Shown one piece after another: positions 14,881 to 25,636 of a stretch of DNA of 64,000 bases. The stretch is from IMG/VR virus record IMGVR_UViG_2636415849_000003, positions 16,149 to 80,148 of that record, one strand, 5' to 3'. A program made the position numbers and the translations under genes. This DNA is from a virus (taxonomy: Duplodnaviria > Caudoviricetes). The stretch's first letter is position 1. Each line of letters begins with the position of its first letter. The notes beneath the pieces were generated by a model. It made no database searches. It was given only the letters and a program-made list of their open reading frames with translations, and was not told where the DNA came from.

Positions 14881-14934
14881 TACACATCACGTTTAAACAA
14901 AAGTCAAACAACGCGTTTAACAACGTTTTGTTTA
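14881..14934. promoter_or_regulatory. OR operators of prophage 1 (three 15-bp sites)
   Basis: TACACatcacGTTTA 14881, CAAACaacgcGTTTA 14905, ACAACgttttGTTTA 14920; consensus TAAAC-N5-GTTTA. Confidence 0.75.
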
Positions 14935-14954
14935 GTAAACGGAAAATCAAGCCA

Positions 14955-15647
14955 ATGCACCCATCCCTCGAACGCCTCTACCAAGCCGCAATGCAAGTGC
15001 GCGGAATCAGTGGCCAATCTGCCGTTGCCCGCTTGCTCAATGAATCGCCCCAGACAGTGAAAAACTGGGAAACACGCGGCGTTTCACGGTCGGGCGCATT
15101 GACAGCCGAGGTCGCACTGGGTGTGCGTGCGGCTTGGCTACTGTCAGGCGAAGGGGAAATGATTTACGGCGGCGGTGCGCCCGTGCTGATTGAGGCCCAC
15201 GCGCCTGCAAGCCCTGACGACTTGGTGCGAATCCCTTTGCTAGCCAATTGCGGCAGCATGGGCCCGGGCAATGATGTGCTGGACACCGATTACGTGGTGG
15301 GAGGCTTATCGCTGTCGGCTCACTGGATTAACCAGCAAATCAAGCCAACAAACTTTCAAGAACTGAAGTTCATTCACGCCCATGGAGAAAGCATGTCACC
15401 CACTTTTAGCGATGGGGATGTACTACTCGTGGATGTTGGGTCCCGCGACCCAGCCAGCCATGAGGGCGTCTATGTGCTGGAAGTGCAGGGCAAGTCATAC
15501 ATCAAGCGCGTGCGTATGCGCATGGATGGCTCGCTTGAAGTCAGCTCAGACAATGTGAACATCAAGACCGTTGACGTACTCAACGGCGACCATGAAGTGC
15601 AGGTCAAAGGCCGCGTTGTCTGGGCTTGGAATGGCCGCAAGCTGTAA
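14955..15647 (+). CDS. CI-like repressor (HTH + S24 autopeptidase)
   Basis: QSAVARLLNESPQTVKNWETRG; GESMSPT..DGD..IKRV. Confidence 0.92.
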   Translation: MHPSLERLYQAAMQVRGISGQSAVARLLNESPQTVKNWETRGVSRSGALTAEVALGVRAAWLLSGEGEMIYGGGAPVLIEAHAPASPDDLVRIPLLANCGSMGPGNDVLDTDYVVGGLSLSAHWINQQIKPTNFQELKFIHAHGESMSPTFSDGDVLLVDVGSRDPASHEGVYVLEVQGKSYIKRVRMRMDGSLEVSSDNVNIKTVDVLNGDHEVQVKGRVVWAWNGRKL

Positions 15648-15652
15648 GCGAA

Positions 15653-16411
15653 CTATGCGCTCTTTGGTAGTTTTGCGCAGCAAATAATAACCCGCCCCGT
15701 CGATGAGTAAACACGGGGCAGAAAGTCATCAAGGGACGCAAAACCCAGCGACCGCAGCGCATCAAGGTTCATAACGCAAACGCCCCCTGAGCCGCCAATT
15801 GAAGAAGGCGCGCTGATGTGCACATCACCATTTCGTTCAGCAAGCCACACATCCAGCACTGCGCCCGGATAGCAGCGATCCACGGTTTCCTCATCAACAT
15901 CGGCAGCAATGATGAAGGCGTGACCATCACGAACAAAGCAGTCAACGCGTAAACGCGGCGCGAGCATGGAATACCTCAGCCTGGGTGCGACCTTGTCTAT
16001 ATCGCTAGGCGGCTGCGAAAACCTCAGGCTCAGCGAGGCACTGAACTGAGGGCCTTCATCGAAAAGCATTCTTGTCACCCGTAGTGCAGCCGTTGTTACC
16101 GGTGGGTGGTAAATAGCATCGTTTTCGCACACGGCCCTCTTGTATCTGGCTGCTGACGCCTTGCACAGATACCCAATGTGATGCTCAACGCAGAGCACCT
16201 TCACAGCATTCCCGTCATGCGGATTTTCGGGTTCTGGCACAAGTGTTGCAGTCGCAAGGAAGAACTGCTCAAGTTCAGGCTCCCACGCAACGATTCTCTC
16301 CAGCGCTTGGGTGTGATAGCTGACACCCACAACTGACTCACCGTACCCCACCTGCTCAGGCCAATGCGGCACTCGAGCATTCGCCCTTCTTGATTTCTTC
16401 TTGATTTCCAT
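15653..16411 (-). CDS. HIRAN-domain protein (moron)
   Basis: VVGVSYH..LVPEPENPHDGNAVKV..IGYL. Confidence 0.75.
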   Translation of the reverse strand: MEIKKKSRRANARVPHWPEQVGYGESVVGVSYHTQALERIVAWEPELEQFFLATATLVPEPENPHDGNAVKVLCVEHHIGYLCKASAARYKRAVCENDAIYHPPVTTAALRVTRMLFDEGPQFSASLSLRFSQPPSDIDKVAPRLRYSMLAPRLRVDCFVRDGHAFIIAADVDEETVDRCYPGAVLDVWLAERNGDVHISAPSSIGGSGGVCVMNLDALRSLGFASLDDFLPRVYSSTGRVIICCAKLPKSA

Positions 16412-18293: not shown

Positions 18294-19229
18294 ATGTTCA
18301 AGAACATGATCATTTACCGCTATGCCGAAAGCTGGCAAAGCGATCTGCAGGCGCTGGAAGATGCGCTGCAGAAGACAGTCTTCGAGGAATGCGGCGCCAC
18401 GCAGGAGCGCTCCATGGGCTGGGTGCCGCCGCGCGGCGAGCCCCATGGCCCGATGGTCGAATCCGTGGCAGGTCAATGGGTGATGCGTTTCATGACCGAG
18501 GCCAAGGTGCTGCCGGCCAGCGTGCTCAATCGCAGGGTCAACGAGAAGGCCGATCACATCGAAAAGACCGATGGCCGCAAGCCCGGCAAGAAGGAAAAGC
18601 GTGACCTCAAGGACGAGGCCAAGCTGGATCTGCTGCCCATGGCCTTCACCAAGCAAGGCAGCATGTGGGTCTGGATCGACCCGCAGGCGCGCACCCTGGT
18701 GCTTGATACCAGTGCCCAGAGCCGCGCCGACGAGGTGGTAACGCTGCTGGTCGAGGGCCTAACCGGCTTTGCCCTGGCCCTGCTGGACACACAAACCAGC
18801 CCGCAGGCCGCCATGGCGCATTGGCTGATGACCCAGGAACCGCCCGCCGGATTCAGCGCCGACCGCGAAACGGAGCTGAAAGCATGCGACGAGTCCAAGG
18901 CCGTGGTGCGCTACGCCCGCCACCCGCTGGACATTGATGAGGTACGCAAGCACATCGAGCAAGGAAAGCTGCCCACCAAGCTGGCCATGACCTGGGACGA
19001 CCGGGTGAGTTTCGTGCTGACCGAAGGCTTGCAGATCAAGAACATCGCGCTGCTGGATGCGGTCATGGACGGCAACAGCAAGGATGACAGCGGCTTTGAT
19101 ACCGATGTAGCCATTGCCACCGGCGAGCTGTCGCGCCTGATTCCGGATCTGATCGAAGCGCTGGGCGGCGAAGGCCGAACCGCGCTGGGCGACCTGCCCG
19201 CCTCGCTGGCTACCAGCGCCAGCAACTGA
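18294..19229 (+). CDS. rdgC: Recombination-associated protein RdgC
   Basis: MFKNMIIYR..SMGWVPPRG..KVLPASV..KLAMTWDDRVSFVLTE. Confidence 0.93.
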   Translation: MFKNMIIYRYAESWQSDLQALEDALQKTVFEECGATQERSMGWVPPRGEPHGPMVESVAGQWVMRFMTEAKVLPASVLNRRVNEKADHIEKTDGRKPGKKEKRDLKDEAKLDLLPMAFTKQGSMWVWIDPQARTLVLDTSAQSRADEVVTLLVEGLTGFALALLDTQTSPQAAMAHWLMTQEPPAGFSADRETELKACDESKAVVRYARHPLDIDEVRKHIEQGKLPTKLAMTWDDRVSFVLTEGLQIKNIALLDAVMDGNSKDDSGFDTDVAIATGELSRLIPDLIEALGGEGRTALGDLPASLATSASN

Positions 19230-19328
19230 GCACCTATTCATAGATTTGCATGAATCGGGCCGCGCACCCACATCAATGAATCGTCTGCCCGCCACTGCGT
19301 GGGCTTTTTTCGTCCAAAGGAGAACCCC

Positions 19329-19916
19329 GTGCAGATTCACACACAGAACGTCATCATCCTTCCACCGGCCGCAACTGCTGATGCCATGGCAAGCATGGAG
19401 CGACTCATGCAAAGCATTGGCCGCGCCGAAGCCCCTGCGGTCGCAGCTCAGCCAGGCTGCAAGCCCCAGATTGGCGACTACTGGCCCAACCAAGGCGGCT
19501 TCTACGCCGGCGACATGCGCAGCGATGACGGAACGATCTATGGACTGATCGTTGCCGATTGCGGCGACTCCAAAGACGCCGGCTCTGCCAAGTGGGGCCC
19601 GGATGGCGAACGAGACCTGTCCCACTGGGATGGCCTGGACAACACTCGCCGCCTGGGCAACGAATGCCCTGCCGCAAAGCTGGCGACCGCGCACTCAGCT
19701 GACGAGCACAAGGATTTCTACCTCCCAGCCCGCCGCGAACTGCAGCTGGCAGCCGCCAATGTGCCCCACCTCTTTGGTGATGAGAGCTGGTACTGGAGTA
19801 GCACTCACTACGGCCAGAGCACCGCCTGGGCCGTCGATTTTGAGTACGGAAACACGGACATCTTCAACCGGAACGACGAGTTCCGAGTTCGTCCCGTCCG
19901 CAGATTCATCTACTGA
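19329..19916 (+). CDS. DGR target protein 1 (DUF1566/C-type-lectin-like)
   Basis: GGFYAG, DFYLPARRELQL, WYWSST, AWAVDF..FRVRPVRRF; contains VR1; GTG start after AAGGAG. Confidence 0.88.
   Translation: MQIHTQNVIILPPAATADAMASMERLMQSIGRAEAPAVAAQPGCKPQIGDYWPNQGGFYAGDMRSDDGTIYGLIVADCGDSKDAGSAKWGPDGERDLSHWDGLDNTRRLGNECPAAKLATAHSADEHKDFYLPARRELQLAAANVPHLFGDESWYWSSTHYGQSTAWAVDFEYGNTDIFNRNDEFRVRPVRRFIY
19825..19904 (+). repeat. DGR variable repeat VR1
   Basis: 80-bp ungapped match to TR with 6 mismatches, all at TR adenines. Confidence 0.95.
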
Positions 19917-19958
19917 TCCCTTCAACCCTTCCTTCTCAAACCAACCACGGAGCCATCA

Positions 19959-20360
19959 ATGAGCACCACACCCGCAATCAACCAGCCCTGGCCCGAGCAG
20001 GGCGGAATCTTCATCGGCAGCCGCCTCATCGACGGCCTGGTACACCACGTCGTCATCCCTGGAGGGATTGAGTTCGACCATGCCGACATTCCATTCAGCC
20101 GAGTGGAGCAGGTCGTGGCCGAAGGCGATGAGCTGAACGGCTTCAGCGACTGGCGCGCCCCGGATAAGGAAGATCTGATGCTGGCCTATATCAATAGCCG
20201 CGAGCTCTTCGATACCGGCGACTGGTACTGGTCACGAACTCCGGATGGCGAGCACTGGGCCTGGGCCGTCGATTGTGAGTGCGGGCACACGGACGACAAC
20301 TGCCGGCGCAGCGAGTTCCGAGTTCGTCCCGTCCGCAGCTTTCCCGCTTCAGCGATTTAA
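19959..20360 (+). CDS. DGR target protein 2 (DUF1566/C-type-lectin-like)
   Basis: QGGIFIG, DWRAP..DL, WYWSRT, AWAVD..FRVRPVRSF; contains VR2. Confidence 0.88.
   Translation: MSTTPAINQPWPEQGGIFIGSRLIDGLVHHVVIPGGIEFDHADIPFSRVEQVVAEGDELNGFSDWRAPDKEDLMLAYINSRELFDTGDWYWSRTPDGEHWAWAVDCECGHTDDNCRRSEFRVRPVRSFPASAI
20260..20339 (+). repeat. DGR variable repeat VR2
   Basis: 80-bp ungapped match to TR with 13 mismatches, 12 at TR adenines and one T>G. Confidence 0.95.
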
Positions 20361-20366
20361 CACTTT

Positions 20367-20381
20367 GCGGGCGTAGCCCGC
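20367..20381 (+). other. DGR target-recognition hairpin candidate
   Basis: GCGGGC-GTA-GCCCGC, a GC stem with a 3-nt loop just downstream of VR2. Confidence 0.65.
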
Positions 20382-20388
20382 CTTTGGC

Positions 20389-20850
20389 ATGGCGCTCCAC
20401 ACTGACACCGAGATCTACAAATCCACATACGACTTGAGCAAGCTGGTCACCCAACTGGTGGCCAATATGCCTAGGAACTTCAAGGCTGACTTTGGCGCCG
20501 AGTTGCGGCGCCGGTGCATGACGCTGGTCATGCGCACCTACGAAGCCAACACGAATGCGGACAAGGCCGCGATCCTGCAGCGCATGCGCATGGAGATTGA
20601 GACCGTCAATCTCTCGCTGCGCCTGGCTGTGGATCTGCGCCTGATTTCGGTCAATCAGTACAGCCGCGCCATCGCCATCACTGACAGCATCGGCAAGCAA
20701 GCCACCGGCTGGCAGAAGTACTCGGAACGCGCGCAAGCTGCCGGCTTGTCAAGGCAGACCGGCCACAGCGCCTTGGAATCTGGTCGAGCCGCTGGGCCAC
20801 AAGCCCACCGAAAGGCGCATCAGGAATATCAGCAGAAGCATCTGCAGTGA
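20389..20850 (+). CDS. avd: Accessory variability determinant (four-helix bundle)
   Basis: IYKSTYDL..MPRNFK..LRLAVDLRLIS..IGKQATGW; lies between targets and TR. Confidence 0.88.
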   Translation: MALHTDTEIYKSTYDLSKLVTQLVANMPRNFKADFGAELRRRCMTLVMRTYEANTNADKAAILQRMRMEIETVNLSLRLAVDLRLISVNQYSRAIAITDSIGKQATGWQKYSERAQAAGLSRQTGHSALESGRAAGPQAHRKAHQEYQQKHLQ

Positions 20851-20906
20851 TTCCGCGCAGTTTGCCTGCTGAATGCTCGGCAGGCCGACGTGATCAGCTC
20901 GGCACA

Positions 20907-20986
20907 CCTGGGCCGTCGATTTTGAGAACGGAAACACGAACAACAACAACCGGAACAACGAGTTCCGAGTTCGTCCCGTCCGCAGA
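20907..20986 (+). ncRNA. DGR template repeat (TR)
   Basis: Copy of the VRs with 8 AAC triplets in the VR reading frame; between avd and RT. Confidence 0.95.
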
Positions 20987-21003
20987 CTCCACCGAGACAC
21001 ACT

Positions 21004-22104
21004 ATGGATACTGGCTATTCGCTCGAGAAGCTGGTGCAGGCTTACTTTGACTGCCGCCGGCACAAACGCACTACGGCCAGCGCACTGCTTTTCGAGCAGG
21101 CTCTGGAGCACAACCTCATGCAACTGCATGGAGAGCTGCAGGATGGCAGCTACCGGCCCGGTCCATCCATCTGCTTTGCGATCAGCCGACCACGGCCGCG
21201 CGAAGTATGGGCCGCCCAATTTAGAGACCGAATCGTGCACCATCTGCTCTACAACCAGATTGCCGATCGGTTCCACCGCCGCTTTATCGCGGATTCGTGC
21301 GCAGGCATCCCGGGGCGCGGCACGCTGTATGCAGCCCAGCGCCTGGAGGCCAAGGTGCGCAGCCAAACCCAGAACTGGTCAGTGCCCGGGCATTACCTGA
21401 AGATCGATCTGGCCAATTTCTTTGTTTCCATCGACAAGCGGGTGGTCTGGCCCCTGTTGGTCCAGCAGATCCCGGAGCGCTGGTGGCGGGGCTTAGCCAA
21501 GGTCATTCTTTTCAACGACCCGCGCATTGACTTTGAGCAGCGCGGCAGCGTTGAGACGCTGGCAGCAGTACCCGCTCACAAGCGCCTTGCCAATGCGAAG
21601 CCCTACTGCGGGCTACCCATCGGCAACCTGAGCAGCCAGTTCTTTGCCAATGTACTGCTCAATGAGCTGGACCAGCATGCCAAGCACAGCATCAAGGCCA
21701 GGCACTACACCCGCTATGTCGATGACATGGTGCTGCTGCACGAGTCACCCCAGTGGCTCAATGGGGCTCTGGACAGCATCAATGCATTCCTTCCCAGCCT
21801 GGGTCTGCAGCTGAATCCACGCAAGACCGTGCTGCAGCCGATCAGCCGCGGCATCGATTACGTGGGCCAGACGATCCACCACTGGCGGCGAACAACACGC
21901 CCACGAACGCTACAGCAAGCGCTCGCACGCATCGAGGTCATGCCAGCCGATGAGGTCTACGCCAGCGGCAACAGCTACCTCGGTCTGGTGCGCCAGTCCA
22001 GCGCCAGCCACAACGAACAGGCGCTCATCTGCAGAGCGCTACTTAGACGCGGGCATGCCATTGAGGGATTGCACCTCAGTAAGGCATTTCGCAAAAACCA
22101 CTGA
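21004..22104 (+). CDS. DGR reverse transcriptase
   Basis: FRDRIVHH, LKIDLANFF, GLPIGNLSSQFFAN, RYVDD; 366 aa with no maturase/endonuclease extension. Confidence 0.96.
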   Translation: MDTGYSLEKLVQAYFDCRRHKRTTASALLFEQALEHNLMQLHGELQDGSYRPGPSICFAISRPRPREVWAAQFRDRIVHHLLYNQIADRFHRRFIADSCAGIPGRGTLYAAQRLEAKVRSQTQNWSVPGHYLKIDLANFFVSIDKRVVWPLLVQQIPERWWRGLAKVILFNDPRIDFEQRGSVETLAAVPAHKRLANAKPYCGLPIGNLSSQFFANVLLNELDQHAKHSIKARHYTRYVDDMVLLHESPQWLNGALDSINAFLPSLGLQLNPRKTVLQPISRGIDYVGQTIHHWRRTTRPRTLQQALARIEVMPADEVYASGNSYLGLVRQSSASHNEQALICRALLRRGHAIEGLHLSKAFRKNH

Positions 22105-22150
22105 CCCCAGCCCGCAGCCGCGGGCTTTTCTCATTCTGGGAGCCACCTAT

Positions 22151-23389
22151 ATGCAAGACAAGAACTTCATCAAGCTGACCGACCAAGACGCAGCCCTGCT
22201 CGAGCAAGGAGCATCCATGCTTGAAGGCCTGGAGAACGATGAGCGCAATCGCGGGAATTGCAGCACAGCCGAAGGCGCAGGATGCAGCGCCCATGCAGTC
22301 CGCCGCCTGGCCTCAGCCCTTCTGGCGCATGAGCGAGAAATTGACCAGTGCCTGCACCAGATTCAGGAGCCAGCCGCAGCAGAACAATCCGCATGGCATG
22401 CAGGCCTGGACGAAGGCCGGGCACAGGCAGCGCCTGCAGCCGTGGCTGTGCCTGATGGCTGGAAGCTGGTGCCGACTGAGCCTACGCCCCAGATGTGTCA
22501 CGTCGGACGCTACGGAGGGGACAAGGACGCCCCAGCGTATGGGGAAAAACCAGTTGAAGGAGAGACCGCTTGGCCATTTGTTGCAGATCACACTGCAAAG
22601 CAGATTTACTGCGCCATGCTCGCTGCTGCTCCAGCGCTTGCCGCCACCCCGGCATGTGACACGCCCAACTACTGCCGCAGCGTGCAGCGTTGCACCGCCA
22701 TGGATGGGCAGCGGGCAGCAGCCGCGCCAGTGGTGCTGCCAGAGCCTATGGCGTGGATGGCGACTCCTGTGATGCAGTCAGGTCGCGGTACAACGACGGT
22801 GTTTTGCTCCGACAAGCGGATGGCGGACCAGTGGGACTACGGCGGACACCCGGAGTACGGCCGCATGCTGGTGACACGGCTCTTCACAGAGCAGCAGCTG
22901 CGCGCCCTGCTGGCTACTGCACCACTGCAGCCAGTGGAAGTCCCCACGAAGGATCAAGCGACATGGTGCAGCTACATCGCCGGGATGATTGGGTGCTATC
23001 TCAATGAGCCAGACGACAGCCCCCGCGTCAAAGCCATTGCAGGAATCATTGAGCGCCGCCTGTGGGCACTGCCGTCCGCAGCTACTGCGACCGGACTTCC
23101 CGCGCACGCGGTTGCAGACGAGGTGCACTGTGTCTGCGGTGCGTCTTGGCTGCGCCACGGCGTCAACAACTACGAGATGACCGACACGCCACGGAAGGCG
23201 CAGGCTGACGCGCGGGATGCGCTGATACCCGCCAAGCCGGTTCACCCCAAAGGGATGACCAGCATCAATGCGCGGCTTTCGTTCAACATGGGCTGGATGG
23301 CATGCGAGCGCCATCACGGCATCCGCGCAGAAGACGTTGAGCAGGCCGTAGCCACCGACGCCGCTATCGCGGCAGCAAAGGGGGAGTGA
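22151..23389 (+). CDS. Mosaic multi-module early protein (Eaa/Ead-like)
   Basis: VPDGWKLVPTEPT..IYCAMLAAAP module; Ala-rich linkers. Confidence 0.7.
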   Translation: MQDKNFIKLTDQDAALLEQGASMLEGLENDERNRGNCSTAEGAGCSAHAVRRLASALLAHEREIDQCLHQIQEPAAAEQSAWHAGLDEGRAQAAPAAVAVPDGWKLVPTEPTPQMCHVGRYGGDKDAPAYGEKPVEGETAWPFVADHTAKQIYCAMLAAAPALAATPACDTPNYCRSVQRCTAMDGQRAAAAPVVLPEPMAWMATPVMQSGRGTTTVFCSDKRMADQWDYGGHPEYGRMLVTRLFTEQQLRALLATAPLQPVEVPTKDQATWCSYIAGMIGCYLNEPDDSPRVKAIAGIIERRLWALPSAATATGLPAHAVADEVHCVCGASWLRHGVNNYEMTDTPRKAQADARDALIPAKPVHPKGMTSINARLSFNMGWMACERHHGIRAEDVEQAVATDAAIAAAKGE

Positions 23390-24007: not shown

Positions 24008-24250
24008 ATGGCAATCAGCGCCAGCACTGTGGGCCTGCCAGAAGACAAGGCCTACATAGCCCACCACTTCAACTGCCCTACCTGCTGCGCTGCCGGGCTA
24101 TCCGGCGGGCAGCAGGAGCGGTGCACTGACGGACTGCTGCTTTGGGATGCCTACAACCAGGCCGCACGCCTTCTGCTCGAACCTTTGAAACCCAACCGCC
24201 GGCCCGCAAGGGCCATTTTTAATGGAGGTCGCCATGGATCAAACTGGTGA
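24008..24250 (+). CDS. Hypothetical Cys/His protein
   Basis: GGAG RBS; HHFNCPTCC..C. Confidence 0.65.
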   Translation: MAISASTVGLPEDKAYIAHHFNCPTCCAAGLSGGQQERCTDGLLLWDAYNQAARLLLEPLKPNRRPARAIFNGGRHGSNW

Positions 24251-24449
24251 ATTCCTGTTGCCACAAGAAATTAAGCGAATGGCGTCAGCTGGAAAGCTGG
24301 ACCAGCAAGAAGCGTTTTTGAAGAAAGAGGGAATCCCTCATAAACGCCTGGGTAGGCGTATTCTTGTCTCTCGCGCTCATGCCCGGGCGTGGCTGACTGG
24401 AGTGGTTTTCACGCCTTCGCGCGGGATTAACTTAGGAGCTGTCAGATGA
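24234..24449 (+). CDS. Putative excisionase (DUF4224-like)
   Basis: FLLPQEIKRM..QEAFLKKEGIPH; directly upstream of int. Confidence 0.75.
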   Translation: MDQTGEFLLPQEIKRMASAGKLDQQEAFLKKEGIPHKRLGRRILVSRAHARAWLTGVVFTPSRGINLGAVR

Positions 24450-25477
24450 CTGGAGCCTATCCACGACTGCGCACCAGGACGCGCCGCCGTAAAAGCGGCA
24501 AGGTCGTGGTGTATTACTTCTATGACGCATCAACAGAAGGAAACGGGGAGATTCCTCTTGGCACCGACTTCGATAAAGCAATCGCCCAATGGAAAGAGAT
24601 TACTGAGAACGGCACTCACAGCGCGCGCATAACTGGCACGCTCGAGGAGGCTTTCTCAGGCTGGGAATCGAAAGTCTTGCCAACATACAAGAGCGAAGAG
24701 ACGAAAAAGGGCTACGCCAAGAATCTCAGGATGATGCGCCCAGTCTTTGCCGAGGCCACTTGGGACCAGGTGAGCCTGCCTGTAATCAAGGGCTACCTGA
24801 CGAAGCGCACGGCGAAGACCCAGGGCAATCGGGAGATGGCCTTACTCTCGGTCATCTGGAACTGGGCGCGCGGCGAAGGCCTCACCTCCCTACCCTGGCC
24901 AGCGGCCGGGATGGAGCGCAGCAAGTGGAAGAACAAAGAAAAGGCGCGAAAGATCAAGGTTCGAGACGATGTGTTTGCGGCTATCTATGCCGAGGCGGCC
25001 CAGCACATCAAGGATTGCATGGACCTCGGATCCGCCACGGGCATGCGCCTGACTGACTGCATCACGGTCCTGATGCCGCGCGGGAACCTGCTGACACTGG
25101 AGGCCAGCAAGACCGGTAAGGAGGCCGAGTGGGACTTGAACCTGTCCGCAGTTCTGCCCGACCTGGTGCGCAGGCGCAAGGCTCTTGGAGCCGATCATCT
25201 GATGCTGCTTTCCACTGCAGACGGGCAGCCGGTGTCGCCCCAGGCGCTTCGCTATGGATGGGACAAAGCCCGGAGCACGGCCGCAGAGAAGGCCATCGAG
25301 CGCGGCGACGATGAGCTGGCCGAAGCGATCAAACAGCTCTACCTGCGGGACATGCGAAAGCGCGCTGCACAGAAAGCGGGCAGCCTGGAAGAGGCATCCA
25401 AGCTGCTGCAGCACAGCGACGAACGCCTGACCGAGCGCCATTACGGCGGCGTCCGGAGGCTGAAGCCAGTGGGCTAA
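24446..25477 (+). CDS. int: Tyrosine integrase
   Basis: TGMRLTD, RDMRKRAA, LLQHS..TERHY; adjacent to att. Confidence 0.92.
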   Translation: MTGAYPRLRTRTRRRKSGKVVVYYFYDASTEGNGEIPLGTDFDKAIAQWKEITENGTHSARITGTLEEAFSGWESKVLPTYKSEETKKGYAKNLRMMRPVFAEATWDQVSLPVIKGYLTKRTAKTQGNREMALLSVIWNWARGEGLTSLPWPAAGMERSKWKNKEKARKIKVRDDVFAAIYAEAAQHIKDCMDLGSATGMRLTDCITVLMPRGNLLTLEASKTGKEAEWDLNLSAVLPDLVRRRKALGADHLMLLSTADGQPVSPQALRYGWDKARSTAAEKAIERGDDELAEAIKQLYLRDMRKRAAQKAGSLEEASKLLQHSDERLTERHYGGVRRLKPVG

Positions 25478-25573: not shown

Positions 25574-25630
25574 GGGACTCAAAATCCCCCGCCGCAAGGC
25601 GTGCCGGTTCGATTCCGGCCCCGGGCACCA
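25574..25630 (+). repeat. att core: 3' part of tRNA-Leu(CAA), not a full tRNA
   Basis: GGGACTCAAAATCCC anticodon arm, long variable arm, GGTTCGATTCC T arm and CCA end; no D arm or 5' acceptor strand upstream. Confidence 0.9.
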
Positions 25631-25636
25631 CATACT

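Follow-up and report, generated by a model that had tools for sequence, protein, structure and literature searches.

A diversity-generating retroelement (DGR) that appears complete and well formed and that, judged by comparison with its relatives, has almost certainly been active on an evolutionary time scale is encoded within 2,776 bases of the IMG/VR provirus record IMGVR_UViG_2636415849_000003. The stretch of DNA analyzed, called the window here and numbered from its own first base, is 64,000 nucleotides long and represents bases 16149-80148 of the 80,148-base record. The cassette consists, in this order, of genes for two small target proteins (T1 and T2), the accessory gene avd, a template repeat (TR) and a reverse transcriptase (RT) gene, with a variable repeat (VR1 and VR2, respectively) in each target gene. 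This element belongs to a described class of DGRs and is not a new kind; the features in which it varies are a conserved pair of small early-operon targets, which by a crude test carry no export signals, and a structured RNA, RT-15, on the other side of the template. As a whole, the findings are best explained, with modest confidence, by a DUF1566/Lcl_C CLec2-type DGR located in the early-left operon of a prophage, the targets of which would be binders that act inside the cell.

The retroelement and its two targets

The cassette is composed of the following features:

19329-19916, plus strand: target 1 (T1), 195 amino acids; GTG start 7 nt past AAGGAG; Pfam Lcl_C 34.1 bits
19825-19904, plus strand: VR1, 74 of 80 nt identical to the TR by ungapped alignment
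19959-20360, plus strand: target 2 (T2), 133 amino acids; Pfam Lcl_C 37.2 bits, reduced DUF1566 domain
20260-20339, plus strand: VR2, 67 of 80 nt identical to the TR by ungapped alignment
20389-20850, plus strand: avd, accessory four-helix-bundle protein, 153 amino acids; Pfam bAvd 51.2 bits, residues 11-111
20907-20986, plus strand: template repeat (TR), 80 nt with 8 AAC codons, found by ungapped scan and BLAST
21004-22104, plus strand: reverse transcriptase, 366 amino acids; RVT_1 60.3 bits (cut-off 29.6)

The repeat coordinates, mismatch counts and gene order proposed in a first-pass annotation of the window were all reproduced by ungapped alignment. The six mismatches between the TR and VR1 are all at TR adenines, as are 12 of the 13 mismatches between the TR and VR2; the exception is a T>G change at TR position 20922, and an A>C change at TR position 20986 is located at or past the edge of the copied part. 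With adenine representing 24 of the 80 TR bases, the probability of finding these mismatch distributions by chance is 7e-4 for VR1 and 5e-6 for VR2. Both VRs are found at the 3' ends of their open reading frames (ORFs), with 12-21 nt left before the stop codon, and a G+C-rich invariant 3' stretch is common to the TR and both VRs. Translated in the VR frame, the TR reads WAVDFENGNTNNNNRNNEF... and includes the 8 AAC codons; since NNC codons encode 15 residues, the previously calculated number of 15^8 (2.6e9) variants is right, as a lower bound.

A BLAST search of the 80,148-base record identified three copies only, i.e., the TR, VR1 (E 1.1e-29) and VR2 (E 7.3e-21). Neither BLAST with E values of up to 10 nor an adenine-tolerant scan identified a further VR in any part of the record, including the tail module, where the first-pass annotation had considered that a tail-fibre VR to the left of the window might be located. 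A hairpin of the type found in phage BPP-1 downstream of the VR was represented at VR2 by a 6-bp G+C stem that was no better than those of shuffled sequences (z -0.27), and a fold scan against the BPP-1 criteria found no hairpin or cruciform downstream of VR1. In one set of contigs (X1), coverage stops at 19844 and starts again at 19876, so that the variable core of VR1 is left out; gaps in cover are not evidence, and nothing is concluded from them.

The Avd protein scores above the Pfam bAvd cut-off of 40 and matches phrog_3206, "Avd protein of DGR", with 116.8 bits; its score of 57.7 bits against the NCBIfam model DivGenRetAVD (NF033474) is under the cut-off of 80. The avd ORF extends approximately 40 codons past the bAvd domain, through the RT-15 RNA (20722-20850). 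The RT matches phrog_1423 with 350 bits and its translation shows both YVDD and IGNLSSQ, the latter an instance of the I/LGxxxSQ motif, which we take to be typical of DGRs; the profile libraries used contained no DGR-specific RT model. Several GenBank records call the homologous gene a "retron-type RNA-directed DNA polymerase", and the RT has weak PADLOC matches to DRT-type RT models, which are generic RT hits. That this RT comes from a retron, a group II intron or a defence-associated system, and that the repeats are incidental, is nonetheless hardly conceivable, as models for RTs other than those of DGRs score far under their cut-offs (81.5 versus 300 for group II introns, 50.9 versus 235 for retron St85 and 41.8 versus 200 for Drt3a), and the cassette combines Avd, a TR and two VRs with the adenine bias. 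A retron, group II or Drt identity of the RT is already contradicted by the curated cut-offs and the adenine bias.

T1 and T2 are paralogues with 33% identity across 148 amino acids. The Pfam gathering threshold for Lcl_C/DUF1566 (PF07603) is 34.9, so that T2 is above and T1 just below it. T1 has an N-terminal extension of approximately 45 amino acids (a strand and a helix), which recurs in its relatives, followed by a DUF1566/Lcl_C C-type-lectin fold. The AlphaFold2 model of T1 has a predicted local distance difference test score (pLDDT) of 91.9, and its top Foldseek match in the Protein Data Bank (PDB) is 8q4e_A, the C-terminal domain of Legionella Lcl (E 6e-7), the next matches being C-type lectin-like proteins. 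The T2 family profile matches the same structure by sequence (E 5.9e-6). A literature search for "HbP1", the molecule name given for 8q4e in one table, found only papers on the unrelated human HBP1. The VRs of T1 and T2 sit at the C-terminus of lectin-fold targets, as judged from the model for T1 and from the Pfam score for T2. The description of the element in the first-pass annotation as a DGR with two adjacent small lectin-fold targets that are not tail genes agrees with the Pfam matches, the T1 model and the gene context. The structure predictions it had called for provided a lectin fold for T1, while the model of T2 was poor (pLDDT 44.6).

There are 268 relatives of T2, of 73-233 amino acids, which are named only "DUF1566/Lcl domain-containing". 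T1 has 1,702 related cluster representatives at E up to 1e-3, and 126 of the best 150 T1-like cluster representatives have no more than 230 amino acids. An N-terminal hydrophobic stretch or lipobox is absent from T1, T2 and 121 of these 126 small relatives according to a crude heuristic (a hydrophobic 12-mer with a mean Kyte-Doolittle value of at least 2.0, or a lipobox) that has no dedicated predictor behind it, and the claim that the targets have no signal peptide holds to that extent.

According to Wu et al. (2018), the DUF1566/CLec2 target class accounts for 14% of DGRs, approximately half of them with short DUF1566-only proteins, and two-target cassettes account for 13% of DGRs. LdtA of Legionella pneumophila, which represents category "d" of Wu et al. 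(2018) (DUF1566/DUF823/Fib_succ_major, with a CLec2 VR), has the same target domain family. However, LdtA has an export signal and is found at the surface as a lipoprotein, whereas T1 and T2 show no such N-terminus by the crude test, and the element described here, unlike the Legionella DGR, is phage-borne and located in an early operon. The DGR of BPP-1 (mtd-avd-TR-brt) shares with this element the order of target, avd, TR and RT, the presence of both Avd and RT, and adenine-specific mutagenesis that acts on AAC-rich codons encoding the C-terminal end of a protein with a lectin fold. It differs in that the targets here are two adjacent small proteins (195 and 133 amino acids) and not a tail fibre, and in that the element here belongs to the early-left operon and runs opposite to the virion genes.

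Comparison with related loci provides the evidence that the element has been active. RT-based scans identified 9 loci in viral contigs and 12 in genome contigs, and TR/VR pairs were counted in 17 non-duplicate loci with 31 pairs, after the duplicates L016 (same as L005) and L022 (same as L009) had been dropped. The closest RT relatives, which are 92-94% identical, are from Comamonas; others are from Acidovorax, an Alcaligenaceae strain and metagenome-assembled genomes (MAGs). The order T1-like gene, T2-like gene, avd, TR and RT is conserved in every close locus that is long enough. Across the 31 pairs, 316 of 330 mismatches are at TR adenines, and in the first 76 nt, which represent the copied part, this is the case for 296 of 299 mismatches, even though adenine makes up 28.6% of those bases; 11 of the 14 non-adenine mismatches are found at the position equivalent to 20985. 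The TR of L005 is exactly the 80-nt TR of the window, and the TRs of L004 and L023 differ from it by 1 nt, but the VRs of these three loci differ from those of the window and from one another at adenine sites. The combination of identical or near-identical TRs with VRs that are all different indicates that the element has been active, with recent turnover in the lineage. Moreover, the eight most variable columns among 57 T2 homologues are exactly the eight AAC codons, which correspond to residues 108, 110, 112-115, 117 and 118. On this comparison, repeated retrohoming is apparent for the lineage, and not for this particular copy today. In locus L008, the RT of which is 61% identical to that of the window, three VRs (at 1998, 4629 and 5201) are found with one TR, and one of these VRs is approximately 3.9 kb upstream of its TR.

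The one non-adenine change in VR2 could indicate a decayed relic that has lost homing and retains old differences between VR and TR. This is very improbable given that the four ORFs of the cassette are all intact, that the RT has a catalytic YVDD, that the RT-15 RNA is present at full length and that relatives with identical or near-identical TRs carry all-different VRs, as expected from recent turnover in the lineage.

RT-15 RNA and its probable pairing with the template

A structured RNA that matches the complete Rfam motif RT-15 is found directly 5' of the TR, and a conserved part of it could pair with the 3' end of the TR:

20729-20909, plus strand: RT-15 structured RNA (Rfam RF03018); covariance model 142.3 bits, full length, positions 1-192 of 192
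20774-20782, plus strand: conserved RT-15 linker, proposed primer-side helix strand, pairing with 20983-20991
20983-20991, plus strand: 3' end of the TR and flank, template-side helix strand, pairing with 20774-20782

The gathering score of RT-15 is 82. RT-15 abuts the TR on its 5' side, reaching the first TR bases, and overlaps the last approximately 40 codons of avd. It is present in 15 of the 18 related loci scanned; the loci where it could not be found are L010 and L024, which are tail-fibre-type DGRs, and L032, a phage locus with no RT. L010 and L024, with RTs that are 44-46% identical to that of the window, are the nearest DGRs in which RT-15 does not reach the gathering score, and their targets end in the same domain as T1 and T2. 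No stable fold was found downstream of the TR (z +1.82), where the gap to the RT start codon is just 17 nt.

The linker is a near-invariant run within a 14-nt segment that is left unpaired in Rfam. In the alignment of 17 sequences, 87.6% of the cells of the 9-bp helix are paired, and this value is 88.8% of 179 cells after the addition of three phage sequences (20 in total), which were added after the helix had been defined and which pair at 9/9, 9/9 and 8/9 positions. Compensatory changes on both sides are found in 5 of the 9 helix pairs (16 cells), the covariation score of the helix was reached by none of 500 shuffles, and sliding the helix partner by 1-3 columns reduced pairing to 26-53%. 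G20982, just 5' of the template strand, is invariant. In 7 of 20 loci, TR and VRs disagree at a single base 3' of the proposed copy start. Five loci have a T in the TR at the position equivalent to 20985 while their VRs keep a G; this base is therefore not copied, an independent observation that fits a copy start at G20982. Several observations weigh against the helix: it was found by eye on the same, related sequences that support it, two of its nine pairs never vary, one C-G pair, at the site of the TR/VR difference, is lost in 7 of the 20 sequences, and its role in priming is pure analogy with BPP-1.

In BPP-1, TR 117-129 pairs with spacer (Sp) 47-56, the last base of which primes synthesis at TR G117, and, two bases on, spacer 59-70 pairs with an avd segment just upstream of the TR; both G57 and G117 are required. 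In the window, the linker strand is followed by one G and then by the closing helix of RT-15, the other strand of which ends 5 nt before the TR. As in BPP-1, a duplex at the TR 3' end would be found beside a second duplex that uses sequence just 5' of the TR. By analogy, the helix formed by 20774-20782 and 20983-20991 could represent the template:primer duplex, with copying from G20982, and the closing helix of RT-15 could represent the counterpart of the BPP-1 "cPRT Stop" duplex. The spacer/RT-10 RNA is located 3' of the TR in BPP-1, whereas RT-15 is located 5' of the TR here. Since the topology would be unchanged except that primer side and structured domain precede the TR, the RNA would be a circular permutation of the BPP-1 RNA, and a permuted pairing of this kind is considered quite probable by this analogy.

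RT-15 and RT-10 were both described by Weinberg et al. (2017). In the available text of that paper, only RT-10 is assigned to a DGR, with speculation about other motifs, and neither a DGR assignment nor a pairing with a TR is given for RT-15, the full length of which is matched in the window. In the literature searched, supplements being outside that search, nothing was found that connects RT-15 with a TR, and the GenBank record of phage Cruim01 labels RT-15 merely as misc_RNA. The association of an orphan motif with the 5' side of the TR, combined with a covarying helix, provides a falsifiable model of template positioning in compact DGRs. Judging by the published descriptions available, surveys that look only downstream of the TR would miss the RT-15 arrangement. 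This RNA model is the most directly testable addition, and a compact 2.8-kb cassette with an 80-nt TR may be of interest to DGR engineers.

Possible roles of the target proteins

The mechanism proposed for the element is that an RNA consisting of the RT-15 structure and the 80-nt TR would be bound by the RT and Avd, and bases would be misincorporated opposite its template adenines during reverse transcription. The resulting cDNA would then replace the 3' ends of the adjacent paralogous T1 and T2 genes, so that the 8 AAC-encoded residues on the surface of the lectin fold would be randomized. T1 and T2 would be soluble, early-expressed binders inside the infected or induced cell, and not virion adhesins, and would most likely act against variable host factors such as defence proteins. 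That the targets act inside the cell is somewhat favoured on the basis of gene content and position, and a specific role in host-directed counter-defence or takeover can be proposed tentatively.

Among the findings that favour an early, non-virion role is the orientation of the cassette, which shares its strand with the CI-like repressor, rdgC and integrase genes, the head and tail genes being on the other strand. The hairpin upstream of T1, which leaves no space for a separate promoter, and the N-termini of the 121 of 126 small T1-like representatives, which are free of hydrophobic stretches and lipoboxes by the crude test, also favour this role. In addition, similar arrangements are found in cultured phages. 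T1-like proteins were found in 13 records of a phage collection (11 distinct phages), where they are all annotated as hypothetical. Magia, Haboob and Cruim01 carry a pair of target genes followed by avd, RT-15 and an RT gene, beside recombination genes. Magia (Burkholderia phage, MT701587, genes 44-47 and 57), with an RT that is approximately 60% identical to that of the window, also has two small adjacent Lcl_C-like genes, avd, RT-15 and RT between recombination genes and the integrase, and its early-left operon, which includes this cassette, starts with a gene for a third lectin-fold target. It differs in being a myophage and in infecting another host genus. The Magia genome note names genes 47 and 57, which are short early genes, as likely DGR targets; their function is interpreted only as to "adapt ... 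or alter its host range", and the available text of the note mentions neither RT-15 nor RNA pairing.

Phage Medea1 has two T1-like copies in its early region, which have a 114-nt repeat in common at 82% identity, and PAN70, which is represented by a partial genome, has a single T1-like copy in its early region. No RT was found anywhere in the Medea1 and PAN70 records. The T1-like regions are located at 5986-7805 of L028 in Medea1 and at 5884-6480 of L029 in PAN70, and in Medea1, a Pseudomonas phage, an HNH/NUMOD4 endonuclease gene is found in the place of avd. From these comparisons, the small lectin genes look like a standing feature of the early operon, whether or not they are served by a DGR. 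The early location noted in the first-pass annotation recurs in all five phages (Magia, Haboob, Cruim01, Medea1 and PAN70), and its inference of intracellular action is plausible but unproven. Since cultured phages (Magia, Haboob and Cruim01) carry the same cassette, the question of the role of the targets is directly testable, and Medea1, with its pair, and PAN70, with its one T1-like gene, represent natural RT-less controls.

The claim that the targets are far from virion genes was found to depend partly on the linear map. In the excised circle, transcription of the early-left operon and of the tail genes runs toward attP from both sides, and the cassette, on the strand opposite the tail genes, is only approximately 7 kb from the tail-fibre gene. 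The claim is therefore overstated, and this proximity can be seen as support for an alternative in which one or both targets would dock on the tail fibre or capsid as small detachable adhesins and act as an Mtd-like tropism switch, with the early position of the cassette being a chance landing. Receptor-binding proteins use the same combination of a lectin fold and a C-terminal VR; matches among viral structures (BFVD) include the C-termini of tail fibres; and phrog_4245, the best PHROG for both T1 and T2, is a 583-position profile that they match only at its C-terminal end. Furthermore, the RT relatives L010 and L024 target 630-amino acid fibre-like proteins, and the conserved, unexplained extension of T1 could be a docking part. 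However, all virion genes are on the other strand from T1 and T2, which puts the two targets out of reach of the late transcript, and the same pair is found beside recombination genes in several cultured phages, with the third Magia target opening the early-left operon. Moreover, no docking domain is recognizable, T2 being a bare 133-amino acid domain. By gene content and position, neither target looks like a virion-module tail fibre or receptor-binding protein of the type represented by Mtd in BPP-1. A role as virion adhesins is therefore unlikely.

The targets could alternatively be expressed in the lysogen and serve the host, as sensors or neutralizers of proteins of superinfecting phages, in exclusion or defence. 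Prophage regions beside int often carry accessory genes that are expressed in lysogens, which fits the location of the cassette. Contigs of two RNA libraries from one organism cover T1, T2 and RT at approximately 92% identity, which is a weak hint of expression, as these contigs could also represent DNA. The same contigs leave avd uncovered, and nothing is concluded from this since gaps in cover are not evidence. Cytosolic VR proteins have been raised as possible immune receptors in a 2023 paper, and the antigen sensors of multicellular bacteria reported by Dore et al. (2024) have in common with this proposal the idea of intracellular DGR targets in conflict systems. The targets of Dore et al. 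(2024) and the cyanobacterial kinase-linked targets belong to cells and carry signalling or effector domains as fusions, in contrast to T1 and T2, which are phage-borne and consist of bare binding domains. T1 and T2 have no effector domain, and PADLOC defence models identified no families for T1, T2, Avd, the 412-amino acid neighbour, the HIRAN protein or the phrog_2600 protein. In addition, there is neither a promoter-like site nor room for one between the hairpin upstream of T1 and the T1 ribosome-binding site, and expression of T1 and T2 thus looks dependent on read-through of the repressed early operon. This explanation appears rather unlikely on balance.

A number of points weigh against intracellular, early-expressed targets as well, and against the broader explanation in which they are included. 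The timing of expression is deduced from gene order, and the activity of the element from a comparison of assembled contigs. The characterized DUF1566 proteins, Lcl and LdtA, are surface proteins (Wu et al., 2018). T1 and all 8 of the phage homologues scanned are under the Pfam cut-off, and the T2 model, which was built with an alignment of 57 close homologues, is unusable. The best viral structure matches in BFVD include C-termini of long tail-fibre-like proteins, and the distant RT relatives L010 and L024 diversify fibre-like proteins, which makes small-target and fibre-target elements neighbours in the RT family.

According to Roux et al. (2021), viral DGR targets are mostly tail proteins and phage DGRs are generally interpreted as tropism switches, while cellular targets mostly have a signal peptide or membrane anchor. 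By comparison, the only targets detectable in the cultured relatives are small early-operon proteins that, by the crude test, have no export signals, and targets of this type point to a second phage use of hypervariation, inside the cell. A more general proposal, which is doubtful at present, is that temperate phages of Burkholderiales and Pseudomonas use an early-left pair of small cytoplasmic lectin-fold proteins, with binding faces rerandomized by a DGR, as an antibody-like repertoire of intracellular binders that would neutralize variable host defence proteins or rival phages early in infection. The repertoire would be fed by a circularly permuted RT-15 RNA, with primer strand and protein-binding structure upstream of the template. 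A literature search for early-operon or intracellular phage DGR targets, or for RT-15 in DGRs, found only the Magia note, Wu et al. (2018) and the 2023 hypothesis paper, with most subscription journals and supplements not being covered.

Prophage setting and neighbouring genes

The cassette is flanked by the following features:

18294-19229, plus strand: rdgC, upstream neighbour; Pfam RdgC 355.4 bits
19287-19314, plus strand: terminator-like G+C hairpin (19287-19304) and T run between rdgC and T1, found by pattern scan
22109-22136, plus strand: terminator-like hairpin (22109-22126) and T run, 5 nt past the RT stop codon, found by pattern scan
24222-24449: putative xis, a guess from position; no match in Pfam, PHROGs or NCBIfam
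24446-25477, plus strand: integrase; phrog_1 60.9 bits, no Pfam or NCBIfam match
25574-25632, plus strand: attR, 59-nt copy of the tRNA-Leu(CAA) 3' part, end of the prophage; exact repeat of G000:C1:975-1033

The prophage, a lambda-like siphovirus of a Comamonas-like host, has tRNA-Leu(CAA) as its integration site. An exact 59-nt repeat of the 3' part of tRNA-Leu(CAA) is found at record positions 975-1033 (G000:C1) and at window positions 25574-25632; a complete tRNA-Leu, which contains the attL copy, is located at 947-1031 of L027, and no tRNA was found in the window by ARAGORN. With attL and attR both in the record, the prophage has a size of approximately 40.8 kb and is wholly contained in the record, and the part of the window beyond about 25632 is outside the prophage. 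The minus strand carries the genes for the tape-measure protein, a J-like tail protein and the fibre, as well as the major head, protease, portal and large terminase genes. The plus strand carries the genes for a CI-like repressor (14928-15647) and a phrog_2600 protein, rdgC, the DGR, a gene for a 412-amino acid protein of unknown function, small ORFs and the integrase gene. This represents the gene plan of lambda, and the DGR is part of its early-left operon, with rdgC on one side and the integrase gene on the other. The flank of xis and int given in the first-pass annotation is supported for int by PHROGs alone, while its xis is a positional guess with no family match.

The hairpin upstream of T1 was found in 11 of 11 loci inspected by eye, and 8 of the 10 loci inspected for the hairpin after the RT gene have it. 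The two flanking copies match over 22-30 nt without a difference in L015 and L006, which resembles direct repeats bounding a module, and rdgC is upstream of the cassette in five loci and downstream in L017 and L007. The cassette may therefore be an exchangeable module in an anti-terminated early operon. The T1 ribosome-binding site is right behind the upstream hairpin, leaving no space for a promoter of its own; a promoter scan found 2 sites, both on the minus strand, compared to 2.9 expected, and is uninformative. In two RNA-library runs of one study (X18 and X19), one contig each joins 19223 to 22104, skipping 2880 bases; this joint (side 35), from the end of rdgC to the first base past the RT stop codon, may represent a relative with no cassette and is too weak to be used as support.

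Directly past the cassette, the 412-amino acid protein (22151-23389, plus strand) has no match in Pfam, NCBIfam or PADLOC and only weak hits to PHROGs of unknown function. Between the CI-like repressor and the early-left genes, a gene on the minus strand (15653-16411) encodes a HIRAN-domain protein (27.7 bits) and looks like an inserted accessory gene. Near attL, an ORF of 218 amino acids (L027 1954-2610, minus strand), for which no PHROG match was found, has a third-position G+C content of 0.31, compared to 0.65-0.8 in its neighbours, and may have been acquired recently.

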